Positions 16,683 to 50,990 of a stretch of DNA of 50,990 nucleotides are shown in pieces. The notes below the pieces were generated by a model. It worked only from the letters and a program-made list of their open reading frames with translations. It was not told where the DNA came from and searched no databases. How positions within the stretch are numbered: the first letter of the stretch is position 1; each line of letters begins with the position of its first letter. The translations under genes were made by a program, and so were the position numbers. Origin of the DNA: a virus (lineage: Duplodnaviria > Caudoviricetes). The stretch covers positions 1-50,990 of the IMG/VR virus record IMGVR_UViG_3300017700_000695; one strand, given 5' to 3'.

Positions 16683-17056
16683 TCCCCGCCTGCGAATGGG
16701 ACCGCTGCGCGCACTGGATTGAAGCCGCGCTCGAACATAGCGGCGGGTCGCACCTCATAGAGGATGTCCGCTACCTCTGCGAGACCGACCCGGACTACCG
16801 GTTCCTGCCCGGCGAGCGGGCCGCGGCCGTCGTCCAGGTCATCGAATACCCCCGCCTGAAGCGGCTCCACCTCTGGCTCAACGGCGGCGACATGGCCGAA
16901 TTGGTCGAGGTTCTCCTGCCTATCGCCGAAACCTGGGGAAAAGCCCAGGGCTGCACCCAAGTCACGACCGCCGGTCGCCCAGGTTGGGACCGCGTCATGG
17001 CGCGCTATGGCTTCGAGCCCGCCGCCCGCATCTGCATGAAGGAATTGACGTCATGA
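16679..17056 (+). CDS. GNAT-like phage assembly protein
   Basis: LHLWLNGG, W.KAQGC....GRPGW.R motifs; precedes the ejection genes. Confidence 0.7.
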   Translation: MIPACEWDRCAHWIEAALEHSGGSHLIEDVRYLCETDPDYRFLPGERAAAVVQVIEYPRLKRLHLWLNGGDMAELVEVLLPIAETWGKAQGCTQVTTAGRPGWDRVMARYGFEPAARICMKELTS

Positions 17057-17964
17057 GTTTCGGCATCAGCGGCAGCAAGTCGAAGCAGAAAAGCTCGACG
17101 GACTCCAACCTCACCTCGACCACGACCCCCAACGTTCCCGACTGGCTGCTGGACCCGGCCAAGGCGTCGGCGGCCAACATCACCAAGCTTGGCGCGACCG
17201 ACCCGTCCACTTTGGTCCTTGGCGAGGATCCGCTGCAGGCCCAGGCCCGCGTCCGCGCCGGCGGCCTGACCGGCTCGCCTTGGAACTTCGACGCCGCCGC
17301 CGATCTCACCCGAGGCATCGCGGGCCAGAGCGCGAAGAAAGTCGAGGCCGCCAGCCTGCTGGACAACCTCGACAGCTACACGTCGCCCTACCGCAAGGAC
17401 GTGGTCGACGCCACGGCGGCGGACTTCGACGCCAACGCCGGAAGGACCCGCGCTCAACAAGACCTAGCGATCGCCGGAGAGGGCGCTTTCGGGGGCTCTG
17501 GCGCGGCTCTGACCAAGTCGGCCACTGAGGGCGAGTTGGCGCGCGGCCGGGCGACGACCATGGCGACGCTGCTGGACCAGATGTTCAACACCGGCGCCGG
17601 GCTCTCCAACATGGACGCCGGCCGCCGTCAGGCCGCCAGTTCCGAGAACGCGTCGCTCGCCATGCAGCAGCGGGCGCAGACCCTGGACGCGGCCCGCCAA
17701 CTCGCCGACCTGTCCGCAGGCTTCGACGCCACCCAGCGGGCCAACATCGCCACCCAGGCCGCGGCCGGCGCGACCGCGCGGGATATCGCCACCGAGCAGG
17801 TCCAGGCTCCGTTCAACCTGCAGGACTGGATCAACCAAGCCCTGGCGGGCCTCAACGGCGAAATGTTCACCGGGAAGACCACAAACGAAGTCGGATCGTC
17901 GAAGTCGACGGGCTCTGGCAGCACGATTGGGGCGTCGGCGTCGGCATCCTACGGGGGCAAATAG
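17053..17964 (+). CDS. DNA ejection (pilot) protein, gp7-like
   Basis: GSKSKQ/TTTP..P.W N-terminus, YTSPY, GAFGGS; Ala/Gln-rich. Confidence 0.7.
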   Translation: MSFGISGSKSKQKSSTDSNLTSTTTPNVPDWLLDPAKASAANITKLGATDPSTLVLGEDPLQAQARVRAGGLTGSPWNFDAAADLTRGIAGQSAKKVEAASLLDNLDSYTSPYRKDVVDATAADFDANAGRTRAQQDLAIAGEGAFGGSGAALTKSATEGELARGRATTMATLLDQMFNTGAGLSNMDAGRRQAASSENASLAMQQRAQTLDAARQLADLSAGFDATQRANIATQAAAGATARDIATEQVQAPFNLQDWINQALAGLNGEMFTGKTTNEVGSSKSTGSGSTIGASASASYGGK

Positions 17965-17967
17965 ACC

Positions 17968-19968
17968 ATGGCTAAGGCGAGCCTCGGCAAACTCGACACC
18001 CGCCAGCCGGTGGCTGTGGACCTCGCGAAGGTTCACGACATCACTGCGCGCATGAACACGCCGGCGGCTCCGCCGCAGATGTCGGCCGACTTCATCGCGC
18101 CTATCAACGTCCCCCAGCCCAAGGCCTGGCGCCCGAACGCGCTGGCGGTGCTGGATGGGGTTCTCGGCGGCATGACCTTCACCGAGAGCCGTCGCGCCGA
18201 GGAAGATCGCCACCGCGCCGAACTGGCCATGCCGCAGATGGAGGCCCTGAAGACCCGCCTCCTGACCGAACTCGGCAAGGCCGGGCCTGATGAACTGAAG
18301 GCCTATCTGACCAACCCCGGCGAGTTCGGGAAGAACATCGCCACGCGCTTGGCGGCCTCCGACCTCGCCGCCGGCTCGTCGCGCGTCTACGGAAACCCCG
18401 ACCAGGGCGGCAGCGTCTACACGGCGCCCAAGACCGACACCGCTGCCGGCCAGGCCTTCTCCTATGGCCCGGATGGGGTGAAGGCGCTCGGCGCCGTTCC
18501 GTTCGTGCCTGACTACGTGAACGTGAGCGAGGGCGGGAAGGCGGTTCCGAAGATGCCGATCCTGCCGCCTGGGTTTGGCGGCCCCGCGGCGATGGCCGCC
18601 AGCCTACCGCAGGTTGGCGAGGTGCGGCGCGTGGCGTCCGCCCCCCTTCCGGCGGCTGTGGCGCAGCGGATCCGCTCGACCGCAACCGCGCTCGGCGCTC
18701 CGCCTGAGGCGCTGTCCTATCTGGAGCGCCTGGCGCAGATCGAGAGCGCCGGAGACCCTGCGGCTCGCAACGGCTCCTCGACGGGCGTGTTCCAGTTCCA
18801 ACCGGCCACCTTCGCGACCGTCGGCGGCGGCGACATCAACTCTGTCGAGGATCAGACCAAGGCCGCGCTGCGGCTCGCCGCCCAGGACCGCAAGAAGCTC
18901 GTCGAGCTCGGGATCGAGCCGACCGACGCCAACCTCTACATCATGCACCAGCAAGGCGCTGGCGGCGGCCCTGCGCTGCTGACGGCCCCGCCTGAGGTCA
19001 ACGCCGTCGCGGCCCTGGCTCCGGCCTATGGCGGCGACGCGAACAAGGCCCGCCGCGCCATCGTCGGCAATGGCGGAACCGCCGACATGACGGCCGGCGA
19101 GTTCACCGACATGTGGCGCCGGAAGTGGGGCGGCTCCGCGGCCCCAGCTCCACGCGTCAGCCCGACGGGCGGCGACCCCGCCGGCACGGTCTACGGCAAA
19201 GAGAAGGCCCAGCCCCGCCCGATGACGTCTGAAGAGCGCGTCGCCTGGAAAATCCCCGAGGGCGTCCCCGCGCTCATGAAGGCGGATGGCACGCCCGACG
19301 TCATCTCGTTGCCGGGCGGCAACTCCAGCCCTCGGAAGACCGAGGCGGACTTCCGAAAGTCGTTCGACGCCCTCGGTGAGGTCAAAGAATATCGTGCGAT
19401 CAGCAACGCCTACCGCACGATCCAGCGCCTCTCAAACGAGGACACCCCGGCCGGCGACATCTCCATGCTGTTCTCGTACATGAAGATGTTGGACCCCACG
19501 AGCGTCGTTCGAGAGGGAGAGTTTGCGACCGCCCAAAACGCCACGGGCATTCCTGGCCAGGTCCAAAACGCCTACAACCGCGCCATCAACGGCACTCGTC
19601 TTGCGCCGAAGCAGCGGGAGGATTTCCGCAACCAGGCCCGGAACATCTACCTGACCCGGGCCGACCGTTTCGACGAGATCGCGAACGAATATCGAGGGTA
19701 CGCGACGGCCTATGACGTCGATCCGGACAACGTCGTGAAGTTGCGCGACGACGCCGAGGCCCAAGCGCCAGGCCCATCGCGTCCGGCGGGCTGGAGCAAG
19801 GCCCTTCCGGCGCCGATGCTTGAGACCGCGAAGCAATTCAAGGGGGCCAAATCGGCGGGCGGCTCTCTCGACAATCCCTTCCTTCCGACCACGGAGGCGC
19901 AGTATGCAAAGCTTCCGCCTGGTGCTCACTACGTCTTCACCGACGGCTCGATCCGGGTGAAACGCTGA
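17968..19968 (+). CDS. Ejection protein with a lytic transglycosylase-like domain
   Basis: LAQIESAGDP..RN.SSTGVFQF, LYIMHQQGAGG; C-terminal KMLDP.SVVREGEF domain. Confidence 0.75.
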   Translation: MAKASLGKLDTRQPVAVDLAKVHDITARMNTPAAPPQMSADFIAPINVPQPKAWRPNALAVLDGVLGGMTFTESRRAEEDRHRAELAMPQMEALKTRLLTELGKAGPDELKAYLTNPGEFGKNIATRLAASDLAAGSSRVYGNPDQGGSVYTAPKTDTAAGQAFSYGPDGVKALGAVPFVPDYVNVSEGGKAVPKMPILPPGFGGPAAMAASLPQVGEVRRVASAPLPAAVAQRIRSTATALGAPPEALSYLERLAQIESAGDPAARNGSSTGVFQFQPATFATVGGGDINSVEDQTKAALRLAAQDRKKLVELGIEPTDANLYIMHQQGAGGGPALLTAPPEVNAVAALAPAYGGDANKARRAIVGNGGTADMTAGEFTDMWRRKWGGSAAPAPRVSPTGGDPAGTVYGKEKAQPRPMTSEERVAWKIPEGVPALMKADGTPDVISLPGGNSSPRKTEADFRKSFDALGEVKEYRAISNAYRTIQRLSNEDTPAGDISMLFSYMKMLDPTSVVREGEFATAQNATGIPGQVQNAYNRAINGTRLAPKQREDFRNQARNIYLTRADRFDEIANEYRGYATAYDVDPDNVVKLRDDAEAQAPGPSRPAGWSKALPAPMLETAKQFKGAKSAGGSLDNPFLPTTEAQYAKLPPGAHYVFTDGSIRVKR

Positions 19969-21677
19969 TGGGCTGGGGCACGGATCCCGTCGCGAAAGGC
20001 GGCGGCTGGGGCAAGGACCAGGTTGTCGCACCGAAGGCTGTGAAGGTGTTTCAGCCGGTCACCGACTATATGGATGGCGCGAAGGGCGCATGGAACGGGA
20101 TCCTTGATGCCGTAAAGGATAACTACCGCGACGTCACATCAAGAGCCTCCCAGCCTCTGCCGAGTTTGGCAGAGGCTGTCGGACGTGAGGTGAATGACAT
20201 TTCGTTCTTGCCGAAGCTGGCGGGTCAGATCGTCGATCTCGGTTCTAAGATCACTGTCGGCGGCGCCCTCGACGCGCTCGTCGCCGCGCCGACCGGCCGC
20301 GCGCTGTCTAAGCTGCCGGTGAAACCGGGCGTCGCGCCGCAACTGCAGTTCGACGGCATGAGGCCCAGCCTCAGTCCCGCCCGGGCGATGACCGAAGCCG
20401 AGTCCGCCGAGGCGATCCGCGGCGCCATCAACACTTCGGTCCAGGCGGCCAAGCCCTCCGGCGGCCTCGCCCTTGAGGCCCGCGTGATGGGCCCGCAACT
20501 CCCCAACGTCCCCGTCCTCAAGCCCAAACCCGACCTCGCGACCCTCTCTCCGGCCAAGCGGAACGTCCGTATTCTGGATGAGGCCGGGGTCTTCATGACG
20601 CCGGGCCAGAAGGCGGGCGGCCAACTGAAGAACCTTGAGGACATCGCCCGCCGGGCGCCGATCACTGGCGTGGCGATCAAGGGCGCGGCTGACCGCAGTG
20701 TCGAGAGCCTGAACCGGGCCGTCGCCAACCAGGCCTTGGGCCCCATCGGCGAAGCCTTGCCGAAGACCATCCCGACCGGCCATGACTCCGTTCGCCACGT
20801 CGCCAAGACGCTCGGCAAGGCCTATGACGACGCCGCGGCGATGGTGCCTGAAGCGGCGATCGATGCGCCATTCGACGAGGCTGTCGCGGCGATCGGGACC
20901 CGGCTGGCCGAGCAGCCGTCCGGCGTGCGGACGCAGTTCGACACCATCATCGACAACCGCCTCGCCAACCTGCGCGGAAAGACCGTGACCGGGGCGCAGA
21001 TCCGCGACGCCCAGTCGCAGATCGGCAAGCTGGCGGCCGACTTCAGCGCCAGCGACGACGGCGCCCAGCGCGCCCTCGGCGGGGCCCTGGACGATCTCTC
21101 CGACGAGCTCGCCAACATCATCGGCCGACGCAGCCCTGAAGCCTCGGCGCTGATCGACAAGGCGAACACCGGGTGGTCGATCTATACCCGCCTCCGAAAC
21201 GCCGCCTCCAAGGCGAAGGGCGGCATCGCGACGCCGGGTCAGTTTTCAACCGCCGTCCGGACCCTTGATCGTTCGGTTGGGAAGGGCAATGTCGCGAGGG
21301 GCCAGGCTGTTCTGCAGGACCTCTCGAACGCCGCCTGGGAGGTGCTGCCCGACTCCTACGGTAACCCCGGCACGGCCGACGCCCTGAGCGCCATGGGCCT
21401 AGCCGCTGCGGCGATGAACCCGACGACGGCCGGCGCGGCGGTCCCAGCTGCGGTCGGTCTCACCGGCGCCGCTGTTCCCTACGCGATGATGGGGCGCAAG
21501 ATCGCGGAGCGTCTGCCGCAGAAGGCCGCTCCGACGCCCGAGCAACTGGTGGAGGCTATTTCGGCTTGGAAGGGCCCCGGCGGCCGGATAGCTGGGCCTT
21601 CAGGATCGCAGCTTCCTCAGAAGACCGCAGGGGCCCTGCCAAAGCTTTCGCGAAGGCAGCCACGGGCCAAGCCATAG
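19968..21677 (+). CDS. Large ejection/internal virion protein
   Basis: Coupled to the previous gene; TPGQ..G motif; Ala-rich and helical. Confidence 0.7.
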   Translation: MGWGTDPVAKGGGWGKDQVVAPKAVKVFQPVTDYMDGAKGAWNGILDAVKDNYRDVTSRASQPLPSLAEAVGREVNDISFLPKLAGQIVDLGSKITVGGALDALVAAPTGRALSKLPVKPGVAPQLQFDGMRPSLSPARAMTEAESAEAIRGAINTSVQAAKPSGGLALEARVMGPQLPNVPVLKPKPDLATLSPAKRNVRILDEAGVFMTPGQKAGGQLKNLEDIARRAPITGVAIKGAADRSVESLNRAVANQALGPIGEALPKTIPTGHDSVRHVAKTLGKAYDDAAAMVPEAAIDAPFDEAVAAIGTRLAEQPSGVRTQFDTIIDNRLANLRGKTVTGAQIRDAQSQIGKLAADFSASDDGAQRALGGALDDLSDELANIIGRRSPEASALIDKANTGWSIYTRLRNAASKAKGGIATPGQFSTAVRTLDRSVGKGNVARGQAVLQDLSNAAWEVLPDSYGNPGTADALSAMGLAAAAMNPTTAGAAVPAAVGLTGAAVPYAMMGRKIAERLPQKAAPTPEQLVEAISAWKGPGGRIAGPSGSQLPQKTAGALPKLSRRQPRAKP

Positions 21678-21837
21678 CGGCGGCGAAGACCGCCAAGCCG
21701 GGCTCATCCGGCAACTTGATATCAAGTAAGACCGCAGTTCCGGTGCAGTACAGCCACCACAGGGCCGTCTTCCACGGGAATCGCCAGCCGCGTGCGACCA
21801 CTCGGAACTCAGCGTCAATGATTTCGCGGTCGGCCAT
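21556..21837 (-). CDS. Small two-TM membrane protein (candidate superinfection exclusion)
   Basis: IIDAEFRVV followed by two hydrophobic segments; antisense to the ejection operon. Confidence 0.55.
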   Translation of the reverse strand: MADREIIDAEFRVVARGWRFPWKTALWWLYCTGTAVLLDIKLPDEPGLAVFAAAMAWPVAAFAKALAGPLRSSEEAAILKAQLSGRRGPSKPK

Positions 21838-21879
21838 CGGCGGCGACTATGCCACCAATCGGCGAAACTACAATTCCGG

Positions 21880-22092
21880 TCACGCCTGAGGAGAGCGGAG
21901 GCCCATCGTTACCAAGTAGTCCGCCACCAGTCGGCGCAGGGCCTCAGGGCGCGAAGGGCGTGGATCGGGCTGCTCTGCGATCCAGCGGTCTAGGTCAGCC
22001 AGGAGATCTGGCGGAACACGCACGTTTACGGGCACCGCCTCGACCTTCGGGCGGCCTCTGGTTTTTCTGGCGCTAGGTATTGCGTTTGTCAT
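21880..22092 (-). CDS. Ribbon-helix-helix (Arc/Mnt/CopG-like) regulator
   Basis: RGRP, PVNVRVPPDLLADLDRWI, SRPEALRRLV. Confidence 0.85.
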   Translation of the reverse strand: MTNAIPSARKTRGRPKVEAVPVNVRVPPDLLADLDRWIAEQPDPRPSRPEALRRLVADYLVTMGLRSPQA

Positions 22093-22108
22093 TTTCTGGC
22101 GCTAACAA
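22063..22108 (+). promoter_or_regulatory. Putative promoter with a duplicated operator
   Basis: TTTTCTGGCGCTA at 22063-22075 and 22092-22104, overlapping TTGCGT-N17-TAACAA. Confidence 0.6.
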
Positions 22109-22177
22109 TATCGGACCGGCGGAGAGGGTGCAACCTCTCAACCGGCCCTAACCAGAACCCGACGAGGAGTATTCGTC

Positions 22178-22525
22178 ATGGCCCAGGCTGCCCCAGCCTC
22201 TACCACCCGTCGCGCGCTACTGTCAGTAGGCGCCGCGCTCCCCGCCATCATCGCGACCCCTGTCATCGCCAAGGAGATCGGAAAAGGAGAGGCGTGGCGC
22301 TTGAGAAAGCGCGCATTCATCGAGCAGGTCGCAGGCTTCTCGCCGAATGGCCGGTTCGTCGCGACCCGCGCGATGGCGATGGACCTTGATCCGGACGACT
22401 GCATCATGATCGAGCTGGCCGGGCCGCGTCACCTTCGGCCGCAACTGCACTTCCAGCGCGACGGGGACACGTCCGTAACTGTTGTCGGGCCGCGAATGGC
22501 GATCCTTCATGGGCCGGTGCTCTGA
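22178..22525 (+). CDS. Hypothetical protein, first gene of the RAMP cassette
   Basis: GAGGAG RBS; TRRALL plus hydrophobic N-terminus; stop overlaps the next ATG. Confidence 0.6.
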   Translation: MAQAAPASTTRRALLSVGAALPAIIATPVIAKEIGKGEAWRLRKRAFIEQVAGFSPNGRFVATRAMAMDLDPDDCIMIELAGPRHLRPQLHFQRDGDTSVTVVGPRMAILHGPVL

Positions 22526-23160
22526 TGGCCGCCTCCACCAGCATCGAACTGCCGCCGCTGAATATCCAAACCATCGACATTCCGGTGATTGGAGACAGCC
22601 CGCTCATCTCTCACGCTTGGTCCGCCAAGGCGAAGAAGATGATGCTGGACAAGCACATGAAGAAGGCAGGCGCCGGACGGGTGGCAAAGGACCCGTTCCA
22701 AGACTTTGCGGAGACGTTGTACTGGCTCGATGGGGTGCCCGAGAAGCCCACGGAAGAGGACATCGAGGGCGGTCGTTTCGGCTTCCCAGCTATCGCCTTC
22801 AAAGCCGCTGCTGTCACGGCGGTCACCAGCATGGGCGGCATGACGAAGGTCATGGCTCGGCAGTGTTTCCACATCGTTGGCGAGTTCGTGGAGCTTCAAG
22901 GGCCTCCGCCCTCGATGCGCTTCGACATCACCAAGGTCGGCATGACGACCGACACGAGATTCCGCGCGGAGTTCGAAACCTGGGGAGCCATCCTCCGCGT
23001 CCAGCACAACGCCAACGTCCTCTCGGCAGAACAGGTCATCAGCCTGTTCGAGGCAGGCGGGTTCGGCGTCGGCATCGGTGACTGGAGGCCCGAACGCGAT
23101 GGCGTTCACGGTCGCTTCCACGTGGCTAAAACCGGGGAGACTATCCCGTGCCGGGCGTGA
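22525..23160 (+). CDS. Small RAMP/Cas7-like protein (Vipr-like effector candidate)
   Basis: First strand IDIPVIGDSPLISH; FGFPAIAFKAA resembles the RAMP IPGSSxKG motif; C-terminal Gly-rich loop GFGVGIGDWRP..DG.HGRF.V; lies near a GGY-NN array. Confidence 0.75.
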   Translation: MAASTSIELPPLNIQTIDIPVIGDSPLISHAWSAKAKKMMLDKHMKKAGAGRVAKDPFQDFAETLYWLDGVPEKPTEEDIEGGRFGFPAIAFKAAAVTAVTSMGGMTKVMARQCFHIVGEFVELQGPPPSMRFDITKVGMTTDTRFRAEFETWGAILRVQHNANVLSAEQVISLFEAGGFGVGIGDWRPERDGVHGRFHVAKTGETIPCRA

Positions 23161-23624
23161 ACTACGCATGGCGGCCCGGCTCACGCATCAGCATCGACGC
23201 CGGCAAGGCGGGGAGGGAGTTGGAGCGCATCCGGCTCGGCAACAGCGGCGCCCTAACTCAGGAGGCGGTCCTAGCGCAGGCAAGGTCCGCCAACTCCGCC
23301 CTGCACCCGCACTTTGAGTGGGATGATACTGTCGCGGCGGAGAAACATCGCCTCGGACAAGCCGGTGAGTTGATACGCTCGATCACTATAGACGTGTCTC
23401 GGTCAAATCTAGAAACCAAGCCCATCCGGGCGTTCGTCAACGTCCATGTCGGCGAAAGGCAGCACTACACTTCAACGCTGCATGCTATGTCGGACAGGGA
23501 ACTTCGCGCACAGGTGCTCGCCAAAGCCTGGGCCGATTTGGAGGCGTGGCGGGATCGTCACGCAGAGCTCACCGAGTTTGCGAAGATCTTCTCCGCGATC
23601 GATGAGGCTCGGAGCGCCAAATAG
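23148..23624 (+). CDS. Accessory protein between the RAMP gene and the array
   Basis: Overlapping start; ELERI, G.LT..AVL..AR...S.LHPHFEWDD..AAE..RL.QA..LIRSI. Confidence 0.7.
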   Translation: MPGVNYAWRPGSRISIDAGKAGRELERIRLGNSGALTQEAVLAQARSANSALHPHFEWDDTVAAEKHRLGQAGELIRSITIDVSRSNLETKPIRAFVNVHVGERQHYTSTLHAMSDRELRAQVLAKAWADLEAWRDRHAELTEFAKIFSAIDEARSAK

Positions 23625-23636
23625 GCTCCAAAACAG

Positions 23637-23808
23637 GGCAGGCGTGGCTGCGCAAGGCAGGGCTTGGCACGGTACGGCTGGGCGCGGCAGGCGTGGTAAG
23701 GCGAGGTTTGGTCGGGCGAGGTATGGCTCGGCAAGGCTCGGCTAGGCAGGCAAGGCGAGGCTTGTCGACGCTAGGCGGGGCGAGCCAAGGCTAGTCACCG
23801 CAAGGCCA
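23637..23808 (+). repeat. GGY-NN pentamer array in three GGCA-delimited units (putative guide RNA array)
   Basis: 32 pentamers parsed by hand, 26 starting GGC/GGT; 4-nt GGCA register shifts at 23637, 23686 and 23745. Confidence 0.9.
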
Positions 23809-23814
23809 ATATCG

Positions 23815-23844
23815 GGGCGGTTGGAGCGATCCAGCCGCCCTTCT
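23815..23844 (+). terminator. Hairpin closing the array
   Basis: GGGCGGTTGGA-GCGA-TCCAGCCGCCC (11-bp stem with one G-U, GNRA loop), then TTCT. Confidence 0.7.
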
Positions 23845-23974
23845 GATGCCCACTCCAAGGTCGATGACCTCTCGGCTCTCCATGCCGCCCAACATGCCAC
23901 GGCGCGGCCCTGGCGTGAACCCCGACCATCCGCGCCGTCGAGAAGACGCCGCATTCCCTCGAAGGACCCGCCTC

Positions 23975-24202
23975 ATGGACGCCAGCCAGATCCCGACGAA
24001 CGCCACCATCGTCACACCGCACGACACCAACCCGGCCAACGGCTGCGCGGTGCTCTACGCCGGCGGCGCCTGCACCGTGATCACGGCGACGGGCGCGAGC
24101 GTCACGCTCCCGACCGACTTCGCTGGGGTCGTGATCCCGGTGCAAATTCAGAAGGTCATGGATACGGGAACCGACGCCACGTCCGTGCTGGTGTTCCGTT
24201 AA
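23975..24202 (+). CDS. Head spike base-like protein (resembles the RcGTA Rcc01079 family)
   Basis: VTPHD..., VLYAGG, G..VTL, G.VIPVQIQKVM.TGTDAT pattern; GAAGGA RBS. Confidence 0.65.
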   Translation: MDASQIPTNATIVTPHDTNPANGCAVLYAGGACTVITATGASVTLPTDFAGVVIPVQIQKVMDTGTDATSVLVFR

Positions 24203-25326
24203 TGCTGGCGCTCCGCCTCGGCATCCCCAGTGTCACCTCCCTCAAGGGTGTGGGGTATCCAGGCGCCTACAACGTCACGCCCGCCTGGCGCGCGTCGGTC
24301 AAGACCAACTGGGCCACGCGCGACCTGTTTTTGCTTGGCGACAGTACGTCGCGAGGGTTTGGGGCCGGCGAAGATGTGACCGGTTGGCCGAACTCCGCGC
24401 GCCACTCGCTATCGGCAGTCCTCGCGGACCTGATCGCGGCGCGCAGCTACAACGTGGCGGATGACAGCTTCTTTGGCGGCGGCTCTGCGGCCCCGGCATC
24501 GAACTACCCGGTAACGGATGATCGCTTCGTCTTCGGCTCAGGCTGGGAGGCGTCGGCCTCCCCGGCAGAGACCGTTGGCGGCCCATGGATCATCAACACG
24601 ACCACAACCGATCCCATCGTGGTCACGCCCGAATTGTCCTGGGATCGCGCCTACGTCTACTACCGCCGCACGACAGGGGAAATGACCCTGCAAGTGGACG
24701 CAGGCGGGCTGACGACAGTTGACACGGCGCCCGGCTCGAATGGGCTTGTGCAGATCGCCGGCATGACCCCAACCCTTGGGAGCCATACCCTGACGCTCGC
24801 CCGCACGAGCGGAACGGTCCAGTTGGCCGGGATCGAGTTTTTCGACACGAGCACCGACCGCAAGCAGGTTCTCAACCTTTCGCGGTCGGGCTGGACGGCC
24901 AGCAACGCCACGACTTCGGCGACGCAAGCTGCGGCCCTGCCGACGTTGGGGAAGCTGTTCGACCAGAGAAGTTCGTCGCTGCTAATGCTCAACTTCGGCA
25001 TCAACGACGAAAACGGCGGGATAACGACGGCGTCCTTCAAGACCTCGATGCAGATCCTTATCGACGCTGCGGTGGCAAAGAGCGCCCCGGTCCTGCTGGT
25101 CGGCCACAACGCCACTTCCGCGACGCCGGGGGCGGGCTATATCCAGGCGCATCGGGAGTTGGCTGACACGAACGGCATCCCCTACTTCAACCTCGCCGCG
25201 CTCTACTCGTGGGCGCAGATTGTGGCGAACGGCTGGAATTTCGACGGCTCCTCGCATCTGAACGCCGATGGCTATGCTGCGATGGCTGCGAAGCTCGATG
25301 GCTTCCTGGCCTGGGCGGTCCTCTAG
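24202..25326 (+). CDS. SGNH/GDSL esterase-containing spike/fibre protein
   Basis: LLGDS, SGWT, FGIND and DGSSH blocks; short N-terminal LALRLGI anchor; coupled to the spike base gene. Confidence 0.8.
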   Translation: MLALRLGIPSVTSLKGVGYPGAYNVTPAWRASVKTNWATRDLFLLGDSTSRGFGAGEDVTGWPNSARHSLSAVLADLIAARSYNVADDSFFGGGSAAPASNYPVTDDRFVFGSGWEASASPAETVGGPWIINTTTTDPIVVTPELSWDRAYVYYRRTTGEMTLQVDAGGLTTVDTAPGSNGLVQIAGMTPTLGSHTLTLARTSGTVQLAGIEFFDTSTDRKQVLNLSRSGWTASNATTSATQAAALPTLGKLFDQRSSSLLMLNFGINDENGGITTASFKTSMQILIDAAVAKSAPVLLVGHNATSATPGAGYIQAHRELADTNGIPYFNLAALYSWAQIVANGWNFDGSSHLNADGYAAMAAKLDGFLAWAVL

Positions 25327-25355
25327 ACCCCCACCCTCCAAAGTGAGTCTGACTT

Positions 25356-25565
25356 ATGCGAGCAAAGTTCCTGCCAGAAGAGCTGAAAACCTTGAAGCCT
25401 CACATGGCCCCCTTGGTCGGATATGAGGCCGATTGGGAATGGGCTGGCGAGATGGAGGAGGGCCCTTATACGGGCCAGGCTATCTATTACCTGAGCCGCA
25501 GTGACGCGCGCTATCGGGAGACCAGGGCGTGCTGGGTTCCTGCGGAAGATTTGGTCGCCGGCTAG
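25356..25565 (+). CDS. Hypothetical protein
   Basis: 69-aa ORF; G.Y.GQ and WVPAEDL motifs. Confidence 0.5.
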   Translation: MRAKFLPEELKTLKPHMAPLVGYEADWEWAGEMEEGPYTGQAIYYLSRSDARYRETRACWVPAEDLVAG

Positions 25566-26227
25566 GTCGGTTGGCCGGTGATGGCGGCCTCAATTGAAGC
25601 CTCCACCTCCCAAGCAATTTGCCGAACGGTGGCATAGTGAGCGTCCGTCATGGCCTTTCCGCTTATCCGGACTTGAGGGGCGGCGTCCGACCTCATCTGA
25701 ATGTATGCTGCGTCGGTGAGAACTGGGTTCAAGTGGGCGCCGCCATCCTTGTTCCTGAGGTTGAACACCAGGCTTTTCCTGCTGAGCGTCGGCCCGGCGC
25801 TGGAGGCATAGATTTTCTCGTCCCACCATTTGGAGAAAGCCAGGCTCCGTTTCCAAGCGGCTCCTGCGGGAACGGGCCCCGCCGGGACGTATGTGGTTCC
25901 GTTATCGTCCATTCGCACCAGCAACAGGGGCAGGGGCGGCTGCATCATTTGTTGGCCTGGGCGGCGGACCCGGTTTCCCAGGTGTTCTCCATAAAGTCCG
26001 CGCGACGAGCTGATGAAACGCATGGAAGGCTTTAGTCCCGCCTGGCCCAACAGCGATGATGTTGGTGACCGGCCGCTCTGGTCGTGAACCAAAATGTGAA
26101 TCGCCGTTGCCATGCGCTCTGCTTCCCAAAGCTCGCCTCGATCGAAGGCAGCGCATGAGGACCGGAGGCCGCGGCGCTGGATGGCCAGCTTTTCGGCAAT
26201 GTCATCTCGCGGACTCGGATGGGTCAA
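25562..26227 (-). CDS. Hypothetical accessory (moron) protein
   Basis: Lower GC, antisense; FDRG, WW.E.I, RNKDGGAH, VRQIAWE. Confidence 0.65.
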   Translation of the reverse strand: MTHPSPRDDIAEKLAIQRRGLRSSCAAFDRGELWEAERMATAIHILVHDQSGRSPTSSLLGQAGLKPSMRFISSSRGLYGEHLGNRVRRPGQQMMQPPLPLLLVRMDDNGTTYVPAGPVPAGAAWKRSLAFSKWWDEKIYASSAGPTLSRKSLVFNLRNKDGGAHLNPVLTDAAYIQMRSDAAPQVRISGKAMTDAHYATVRQIAWEVEASIEAAITGQPT

Positions 26228-29136: not shown

Positions 29137-29955
29137 CTACTTCCGGCGGGCCAGCTTCCGCAGGGTCGGCGAGGTCATCATACCGGGCTTGGGCTTGTTC
29201 GGCGCCGGGAGGAGCTGGGGCAGGTAGACCAGGGCCCGGGGATCGCGCGTCCGGAAGTAGTCCTCGGCGCACTCGGGGATCCACACCTGATCGATGAAGT
29301 CGAGGTAGAGGTGGAGAAGCCGCCGCGGGTATTGGCGGGCCAGGACGTCGATCTGCGGCGTGGTGTGGACGTAGTGGGAGTGATCGTTGGCCGCTTCGGG
29401 GTGGAGCTCGTTCAGCCAGGCGGCGAACCGCTTACCCACGCTGATGTCCGGCCGCAGTTCTTTCCCGTCCAGAGCGCGGTCGGGCATCACATAGCCTGCC
29501 ATCTCCAGTCGGCCCCAGAGGCGCACGACCAGCTCGTTGATAACTGAGAAGTGGCCTTCCTCGACGCGGTCCCAATTGGCCTGGAAGCGCTTGATGAAGG
29601 CAGGCACGGCGCCGCCATATCCGCCTGTCTTGCGGATGGAGGGCAACACCTCCGAGGTGACCCACTTCTTGAAGCGTTTCGCGCCCGGCTTGTCGGAGCG
29701 AAGGATCACTGAGTAGAGGCCGGACTCGCTGATAATCGTCATCGAGCGCGCCCCGCCGCGGACGCCGGTTTGACCCTCGGTCAGACCGAGGGTCATTTTC
29801 TCGTCGTCATCTAGCCGCGCCGCGGCGTCGGAAGGATTCTTGATATCGAGAGCCCGACACACGTCCACGAGGACGAACCAGGGTTCGCCATCTCGGTTGA
29901 TGGTGCGGAATTGAGAGTGGTCTTCGGTCTCGAAAACCTGAAGGGCCTGCTGCAT
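29137..29955 (-). CDS. BRO-N domain antirepressor-like protein
   Basis: GEPWFVLVDVCRAL, ISESGLYSVILRS.KP.AKRFKKWVTSEVLPSIRKTG. Confidence 0.9.
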   Translation of the reverse strand: MQQALQVFETEDHSQFRTINRDGEPWFVLVDVCRALDIKNPSDAAARLDDDEKMTLGLTEGQTGVRGGARSMTIISESGLYSVILRSDKPGAKRFKKWVTSEVLPSIRKTGGYGGAVPAFIKRFQANWDRVEEGHFSVINELVVRLWGRLEMAGYVMPDRALDGKELRPDISVGKRFAAWLNELHPEAANDHSHYVHTTPQIDVLARQYPRRLLHLYLDFIDQVWIPECAEDYFRTRDPRALVYLPQLLPAPNKPKPGMMTSPTLRKLARRK

Positions 29956-50758: not shown

Positions 50759-50990
50759 GTGAGCGTCGCTCAGCTCATCAGAGACATGGCGGCGGCTGGG
50801 GCGCCGGCCGAGGCTATCGCCTTGGCGGTCGACGCTATTGAGGCCGCCGAGGCGAAGCTTGGCGCCCAGCGCGAGGCTGCCCGAGACCGGAAACGGCGGC
50901 AACGGGCGGGACAGTCGCGTGACGGTCACGGGACAGTCACGGGACATTCCCACGACAGTCACGCCCAACCCCCCCCCCCCCCCCCCCCTC
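50759..50990 (+). CDS. N-terminal part of the replication initiator (runs off the window end)
   Basis: GTG start; SVAQLIRDMAAAGAPAEAIALAV...AARDRKRRQR; contains iterons; no stop before the end. Confidence 0.7.
   Translation, partial: MSVAQLIRDMAAAGAPAEAIALAVDAIEAAEAKLGAQREAARDRKRRQRAGQSRDGHGTVTGHSHDSHAQPPPPPPP
50908..50962 (+). repeat. Five tandem 11-bp iteron-like repeats (putative origin)
   Basis: GGGACAGTCGC, GTGACGGTCAC, GGGACAGTCAC, GGGACATTCCC, ACGACAGTCAC. Confidence 0.75.

Follow-up and report, generated by a model that had tools for sequence, protein, structure and literature searches.

A phage-borne VIPR guide that probably targets a sibling-phage allele of an ejection-protein gene

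The genome of an uncultured phage, IMG/VR record IMGVR_UViG_3300017700_000695 (a complete virus genome of 50,990 bases, analysed in full and called the window here), contains, to judge from its sequence, a complete Viral Interference Programmable Repeat (VIPR) locus that consists of a vipr gene, a candidate vap gene, three staggered guides and a 3' hairpin. The second guide, U2, matches the phage's own ejection-protein gene imperfectly and fits better the allele of that gene carried by its closest homologues. We consider it probable that U2 is a VIPR guide directed against the ejection-gene allele of sibling phages, with the carrier itself spared by mismatches and the rival silenced. The VIPR kind of system has already been published in 2026 preprints; as far as the available text of those preprints goes, the features particular to this locus are its inferred target, a virion ejection allele of siblings, and a mosaic boundary adjacent to the target site. 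An earlier note on this DNA had decoded U2 by skipping every third target base, and the rule that it reached from raw sequence coincides with the one-nucleotide-skip mechanism published in 2026 (bioRxiv 10.64898/2026.04.26.720920), of which the remaining components are also present in the window.

VIPR systems are described in the available text of the first preprint (bioRxiv 10.64898/2026.04.26.720920) as comprising an approximately 20-kDa RAMP protein, Vipr, an accessory protein, Vap, and vrRNAs, which consist of 9-16 YNNGG repeats and a 3' tail. The NN pairs read double-stranded DNA while one base is skipped per unit, usually the wobble base, and targets may lie on either strand and require no protospacer-adjacent motif. 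Natural targets were called at ≥80% NN identity, with no self match reported at ≥80%, and include satellites, prophages (lysis-lysogeny regulators) and other VIPR loci. The system represses and does not cleave, and silencing by the system of phage SUSP1 was abolished when NN pairing was disturbed. In arrays termed 'staggered', one nucleotide is common to each two adjacent vrRNAs (fig. S18 legend of the same preprint). A cryo-electron microscopy preprint (bioRxiv 10.64898/2026.04.26.720927) describes one protomer per repeat and a thumb that displaces the guide GGY together with one target base. A third (bioRxiv 10.64898/2026.10.15.759431) applies a cut-off of 0.8 identity with shuffled-guide nulls and reports, in the text available, self-match scores below rival scores, avoiding autoimmunity.

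The guides of the present phage are located on the plus strand from 23636 to 23808, where approximately 35 consecutive five-base GGY-NN units are found. Unit U1 (23641..23690) contains 10 pentamers with the NN pairs GT TG AA AG TT AC AC TG GC AG; one of its pentamers is degenerate (CGCAA), and a start one pentamer earlier, at 23636, is possible. Unit U2 (23690..23749), the 'Unit 2' of the earlier note, contains 12 pentamers with the NN pairs GT AA GA TT CG GA AT TC AA TC TA AG. Its letters from 23690 to 23744 are ggcGT ggtAA ggcGA ggtTT ggtCG ggcGA ggtAT ggcTC ggcAA ggcTC ggcTA, and the twelfth pentamer is GGCAG, whose final G doubles as the first base of U3. The GGY triplet is intact in each of the 12 pentamers of U2. 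Unit U3 (23749..23808) has 12 pentamers as well, and in five of these the GGY triplet is degenerate. Neighbouring units share a single G at both the U1/U2 and the U2/U3 junctions, which makes the array a staggered one. It begins 17 bases past the stop of the vap candidate and is directly followed by a 12-bp hairpin (23814..23841, plus strand; -27.9 kcal/mol, z = -2.87, 0 of 200 shuffles as stable), a candidate vrRNA 3' tail or terminator. Neither U1 nor U2 is followed by a separate tail, the sole hairpin of the array being the one after U3, and in this the array is like those called staggered in the fig. S18 legend. No credible Rfam family covers 23400-24000, the best match, Acido-1, having 20 bits where the gathering score is 50. 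Before the VIPR preprint and the Vipr match were found, the array had been read as a decayed microsatellite, as an antisense rut site, as G-quadruplex runs or as a TRAP-like protein platform; these readings were then dropped.

When three bases of the guide are dropped per unit and one base of the target is skipped, the best match of U2 anywhere in the window, on either strand, lies within the ejection or internal-virion gene (17968..19968, plus strand; 666 aa; named from PHROGs and from the annotation of GenBank relatives). Direct reading confirmed the sequence that the earlier note had given for 19381-19413, namely GTC AAA GAA TAT CGT GCG ATC AGC AAC GCC TAC, in frame and encoding residues 472-482 (VKEYRAISNAY). 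With the twelfth unit included, the near-target, protospacer-like site spans 19381..19416 on the plus strand (codons 472-483) and reads VKEYRAISNAYR in the phage itself. A scan of the window reproduced the previously counted 17 of 22 letters and 7 of 11 dinucleotides, with the skipped base at codon position 3; the runner-up has 15 letters, and with the twelfth unit the count is 18/24. The string that the earlier note had decoded from U2 is exact, although its description of U2 as read with every third base skipped is loose; neither a 33-mer of the string in which each third base is free nor a contiguous 22-mer occurs in the window at ≤3 mismatches, and U2 under other spacings, reversed or complemented is absent as well.

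Chance expectation was estimated by shuffling the guide, either in its dinucleotide order or in its single letters, and rescanning the whole window on both strands. A window maximum of ≥17/22 was obtained in 19 of 3000 dinucleotide-order shuffles and 13 of 3000 letter shuffles (P ~0.006), and one of ≥18/24 in 22 of 4000 shuffles (P = 0.0055); across the three guides, the family-wise P for the U2 self match is ~0.02. On the two strands of other phage loci that total 1.094 Mb, U2 has one match at ≥17/22 and six at ≥16/22, a control rate for ≥17/22 of ~0.05 per 51 kb, and the lone control match at 17/22 is on the minus strand of locus L004, outside the homologous gene. The best self matches of the other guides are 14/20 for U1 (P=0.85) and 16/24 for U3 (P=0.29). 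Taken alone, the U2 self match is suggestive, in agreement with the earlier judgement that it was suggestive and not proof. All self matches of the three guides are below 80%; that of U2, at 77% (75% with 12 units), falls under the cut-off given in the available text of two of the preprints, in line with the proposal that mismatches protect self.

The ejection protein contains a transglycosylase-like segment at residues ~250-380 and a conserved C-terminal domain at ~452-597, within which the site lies. The protein matches phrog_13634, phrog_4067 (transglycosylase) and phrog_917 ('released from the phage upon host infection'), and the C-terminal domain itself matches phrog_13634 and phrog_917; Pfam PF06737 scores under the family cut-off. 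Relatives in GenBank phages are named 'virion structural', 'internal virion' or 'DNA transfer' protein. A search for homologues of the C-terminal domain with residues 440-610 as the query gave 1926 proteins at E≤1e-5 among 2239 candidates. The best 120 of the 1926 were considered further, and residue frequencies were counted over 119 aligned homologues among these listed matches. Many of the homologues found carry fusions to other cell-wall hydrolase domains.

It is in these homologues that the mismatched letters of U2 find their counterparts. The guide decodes to V-[KN]-[DE]-[FL]-R-[DE]-[IM]-S-[NK]-S-Y-[SR], and the closest C-domain homologues among the matches listed, P0002, P0003 and P0005 (68, 67 and 63% identical), read VKEFRDVSNSYR and fit 11 of the 12 decoded residues, compared with 9 of 12 for the self sequence. 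Over the whole protein, identity to the ejection protein of the window is 82% for P0002 and 85% for P0003. At codon 475, where self has TAT (Y), the guide reads TT (F/L) and the closest homologues have F, a residue present in 79 of the 119 aligned sequences. The self codon GCG (A) at 477 is set against a guide GA (D/E) and D in the closest homologues, with D or E in 71/119. Codon 481 is GCC (A) in self, TC (S) in the guide and S in the closest homologues (S in 55/119). At codon 479, the residue is the same in self (AGC, S) and in the closest homologues (S; 22/119 overall), and the guide takes the other serine codon box, TC. At all four self-mismatched codons, the guide specifies the residue of the closest homologues. 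The earlier note had described most of the mismatches as conservative (Y/F, A/S) or as a serine codon-box switch. If the 17 matched letters are held fixed, only one of the 243 fillings of the five mismatched letters gives the homologue allele by our count, and this count is independent of the window-wide P.

Codons for P0002, P0003 and P0005 permit 16-21 of the 22 NN letters, with a maximum of 23/24 when the twelfth unit is included, and the shuffled-guide null on the seven proteins scored (n=300) had a maximum of 18/24 and a mean of 15.2. From the codon usage of the window (TCN 0.69 of Ser, CGN 0.95 of Arg), a match of ≥19/22 is likely for the sibling allele. More distant homologues were surveyed as DNA at 82 loci (80 from IMG/VR plus L002 and L004), with the site placed by tblastn. 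In the 77 that were gapless, the homologous site matches at 7-18 of 22 letters, the top scores being those of L131 (VKEFREVDNSFR) with 18/22 (82%) and of L196 and L199 with 17/22.

Part of a sibling allele is visible in public sequencing runs, 12 of which were listed and four aligned at 80% likeness, all of them DNA contigs; wastewater runs contain 12-17% of the sampled words of the ejection gene. A sibling contig of 23,002 nt from run X3 shows 97 differences in 1392 bases over 17968-19359 (93% identical), and from 19360 onward it is unlike the window. This mosaic boundary (19359..19360) is located 21 bases upstream of the target site. The 30 letters past the end of the alignment in the sibling contig translate as E F N L R P E V K E, and the last three codons, GTC AAG GAG, are its codons 472-474 and match 6/6 guide letters. 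In runs X2 and X3, depth is 0 over the bin 19375-19441, an observation that carries no weight by itself. The closest IMG/VR relative, L001 (10001-11863), is 85% identical over the N-terminal 600 bases of the ejection gene; the C-terminal half of the gene in L001 bears no relation to that of the window and has no target domain, and the ejection gene is consequently a mosaic hot spot within this phage group. The idea of the earlier note that U2 is really aimed at the homologous gene in a related phage gains support from the VKEFRDVSNSYR allele, from its maximum of 21/22 (23/24) and from the sibling GTC AAG GAG.

The protein that would bind these guides is encoded by vipr (22525..23160, plus strand), a 211-aa Cas7-like RAMP and guide-binding subunit according to profile, sequence and fold. 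Its family profile, built from a 38-sequence alignment, matches PDB 36pp_D, 'SUSP1 Vipr protein', with E=1.9e-24 over nearly the full length. The single sequence is only weakly similar to the same entry (E=0.0044), the two having a C-terminal GxGDWRP...GRF motif in common and the window protein a short insertion before the final GRF. An AlphaFold model (AF2; mean predicted local distance difference test, pLDDT, 91.1) has Csm3, type VII Cas7, Cmr6 and Cas7-11 as its top Foldseek matches, with 36 matches at E≤0.001 and TM-scores of 0.4-0.5. A C-terminal G-x-G-[DE]-x-R-P motif is conserved, with G179, G183 and R188 invariant, and is compatible with a G-loop. The vap candidate (23148..23624, plus strand; 158 aa) starts within vipr, overlapping its end by 13 bases. 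It belongs to phrog_15946 (unknown function), has H53, F56 and W58 invariant and is modelled with a pLDDT of 90.6; its position and co-occurrence make it a candidate Vap. PADLOC on the three cassette open reading frames (ORFs) and NCBIfam on the cassette ORFs gave no match.

Loci with arrays of this kind were fetched from IMG/VR by the DNA pattern (GGYNN)x8+GGY, which returned at least 120 viral stretches, and the three ORFs upstream of the array were compared by tblastn with 124 loci, 120 of them fetched by the DNA pattern alone. Homologues of the 211-aa ORF are present in 51 of these 120 loci, and homologues of the 158-aa ORF adjoin vipr or arrays in 21 of the 120. The six nearest loci have an identical architecture and 'GGCAGGC' staggered junctions. 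Among the first 46 pattern-fetched loci (GC 39-70%), most have conserved GG(Y), free NN and a frequent four-base 'GGCA' slip between units; the exceptions are the simple repeats L038, L043 and L049. The whole cassette, together with a small ORF at 22178-22525, is absent from L001, which is 79-85% identical to the window in structural genes.

If the locus functions as the SUSP1 system does, Vipr protomers would polymerise on the expressed and processed transcript, one per pentamer, so that GGY is hidden and NN is presented. The filament would then pair through NN with double-stranded DNA, every third base of which would be flipped out, and once bound it would act as a transcriptional roadblock. 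U2 would be written against codons 472-483 of a sibling ejection allele of the VKEFRDVSNSYR type. The rival would not be freed by synonymous changes, since it is the wobble base that is skipped. The self match is only 17/22 because the diverged C-terminal module of the carrier starts just upstream of the site, and silencing presumably requires a better match than this. An essential virion gene in a co-infecting or resident sibling phage would then probably be repressed.

Several results weigh against a sibling ejection allele as the target of U2. Close-relative DNA with ≥80% NN identity to U2 was seen neither in IMG/VR nor in JGI metagenome contigs or GenBank phages. The pattern search suggested in the earlier note came back empty: the exact U2 pattern has 0 matches in viral contigs, and the pattern with the first base of codon 478 freed has 0 matches in metagenome contigs. 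The exact U3 pattern also has 0 matches in viral contigs, and there is no convincing target for either U1 or U3. In JGI metagenome contigs, the query P0003 found 22 loci, none of them close in the C-domain, and the ejection-protein relatives in GenBank phages are at most 44% identical. The sibling allele is seen as DNA for 3 of the 12 codons (9 of the 36 target bases). For the VKEFRDVSNSYR allele, the match falls to 17/22 if both serines are AGY and reaches its floor of 16/22 if the arginine is AGR in addition. The homologues share ancestry with self, so part of the match is inherited and only the mismatch-codon argument is independent. Concerning the locus itself, no sigma-70-like promoter was found in 21600-24000, and the fold search with the vap candidate against the PDB gave nothing significant (best E=0.75; the weak names include winged-helix repressors).

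A single-protein search for close siblings of the ejection gene in IMG/VR found only L001 and L002, the genome contigs gave just one distant locus in a metagenome-assembled genome, and megablast of window 17000-26000 against GenBank phages gave no match. U1 and U3 compared with the proteins of the closest homologues gave nothing above shuffles. The exact U1 pattern (20 NN letters) occurs in viral contigs at four loci (L227-L230; 43-46% GC) that share one identical 149-base context. There, the skip falls at codon position 1 in an opposite-strand frame, the sole open frame of the six across the context. This is the only exact match of any of the three guides; it counts as one independent match and is probably due to chance.

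Some of these results would equally be expected if the VIPR locus were real, the self match of U2 coincidental and its true target elsewhere. The other phage loci did yield one 17/22 match, the self match is under the published 80% cut-off, no exact U2 target turned up in either the viral or the metagenome contigs, and U2 was picked among three units. We nevertheless regard such a coincidence as unlikely in view of the window-wide P per guide, the conversion of self into the closest homologues' allele by all five mismatched letters, the 23/24 attainable on P0002 against a null maximum of 18/24, and the in-frame wobble skip, which is shared by most natural targets according to the available text of the preprint (10.64898/2026.04.26.720920).

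Repression of the carrier's own gene is another reading, in which imperfect pairing of U2 would tune the ejection gene, for instance by damping late-gene expression in the lysogen, and rivals would not be targeted. The phage's own site is the only DNA site seen in full, and VIPR, as described, works by repression and not by cleavage. A guide of this type is very unlikely in our view: the preprints, in the text available, report no self match at ≥80% and self scores below non-self scores, which avoids autoimmunity, and disturbed NN pairing abolished silencing in SUSP1. Furthermore, U2 fits the sibling allele better than self at every differing codon, which is unexpected for a self-regulator. 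Finally, U2 could be a fossil, formerly matched to an ancestral allele of self or of a rival and by now drifting, its living target lost. Degenerate pentamers in U1 and U3 and the lack of a perfect target (for U2 in viral and metagenome contigs, for U3 in viral contigs) would suit such a remnant, which we find very unlikely given that every GGY triplet of U2 is intact, that vipr is full length with a fold predicted at high confidence, and that wastewater runs of 2021 and 2024 yielded assemblies of phages in which the fitting allele is present.

A guide aimed at the ejection allele of sibling phages can be compared with the published systems, within the available text of the preprints. The locus resembles the staggered VIPR systems in having a Vipr RAMP with one accessory gene on a phage, 10-12 pentamers per guide (published, 9-16), a one-nucleotide overlap of guides, a near-target in coding sequence with a wobble skip, and a self match <80%. 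It differs in its inferred target, a sibling virion ejection gene, in contrast to satellites, lysis-lysogeny regulators and VIPR loci. With the Type II VIPR of Escherichia phage SUSP1 (PDB 36pp), it shares a homologous Vipr, and the 12 protomers on 12 repeats of that structure (bioRxiv 10.64898/2026.04.26.720927) equal the unit number of U2. Every guide of SUSP1 has a pseudoknot tail at its end, whereas the three guides of the present array adjoin one another and a hairpin follows the last only. The solo and rival vrRNAs of the SUSP1 family and those of F5 satellites are likewise aimed at close relatives with a lower self score, and the codon periodicity of their targets blocks escape (bioRxiv 10.64898/2026.10.15.759431). 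Those guides hit vipr, vrRNAs or a satellite recombinase, whereas the present phage has vipr and its guide is probably directed at an allele of a structural gene.

Class 1 CRISPR-Cas effectors (Cas7/Csm3 filaments) are similar in the fold of the guide-binding subunit and, as described in the available preprint text, in a thumb that periodically interrupts the guide-target duplex. The present array is different in its 5-nt repeat with two informative bases per unit and in the skipping of every third target base rather than every sixth. The window contains no CRISPR repeat-spacer array and no cas1/cas2 or other cas genes by repeat scan and by PADLOC on the three cassette ORFs.

If U2 acts as proposed, the VIPR rule extends to an uncultured phage that is GC-rich, looks temperate and is distant from the systems of Escherichia and Pseudomonas examined to date, and a testable class of natural target is added, namely the internal-virion or ejection gene allele of sibling phages. 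The two alleles form a natural self/non-self pair that is five guide-read letters apart and suited to measuring the NN mismatch tolerance of Vipr. Sub-threshold self matches can also indicate the real target of a guide when the rival genome is unsequenced. A further, tentative idea, which we think possible and rather doubtful, is that VIPR pressure shapes the mosaicism of virion genes: the carrier may have escaped a guide, its own or its siblings', that silences the ejection allele common in the family by swapping in a diverged C-terminal module, and the cassette would now serve as a sibling-exclusion weapon against the ancestral allele. If this held generally, the positions of vrRNA targets would show where structural genes of phages have their recombination hot spots, and the real prey of each guide could be found through near-self matches (70-79%).

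GGY-NN arrays are very common in IMG/VR (at least the 120 stretches returned) and occur in several layouts. Apart from the staggered form, there are arrays with conserved hairpin-bearing spacers (L006), arrays with short 'AGGACTTTA' linkers (L007) and arrays flanking vipr on both sides (L101, L039). In the window, the small ORF directly upstream of vipr (22178-22525, plus strand; 115 aa) has an N-terminal, RR-containing hydrophobic leader of twin-arginine-like type and no family match. Downstream of the array, a 501-aa ORF (23821-25326, plus strand) has a C-terminal GDSL/SGNH hydrolase domain (PF13472, E=3e-13); its mechanically assigned TTG start at 23821 lies inside the terminal hairpin, and the true start is probably further downstream.

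The remainder of the genome encodes a terminase, a portal, a scaffold and a major head protein as well as a CI-like repressor and an Ant/BstA-like protein, and the carrier looks temperate. The Ant/BstA-like protein (29137-29955, minus strand; 272 aa) combines an N-terminal anti-repressor Ant domain with a BstA-like abortive-infection domain (phrog_6287, E=1e-16) and could give this genome a second gene for inter-phage conflict. Two further repeats were seen in the window. A tandem 13-base repeat (GCGTAAGACTTAC / GCGTAATACTTAC) is located at 2620-2646 in an intergenic region upstream of the packaging genes. At the end of the record (50907-50990), an 11-base repeat (consensus CGGGACAGTCA) occurs five times ahead of a run of 20 C, which could be a feature of the genome terminus or an artefact of assembly or sequencing.

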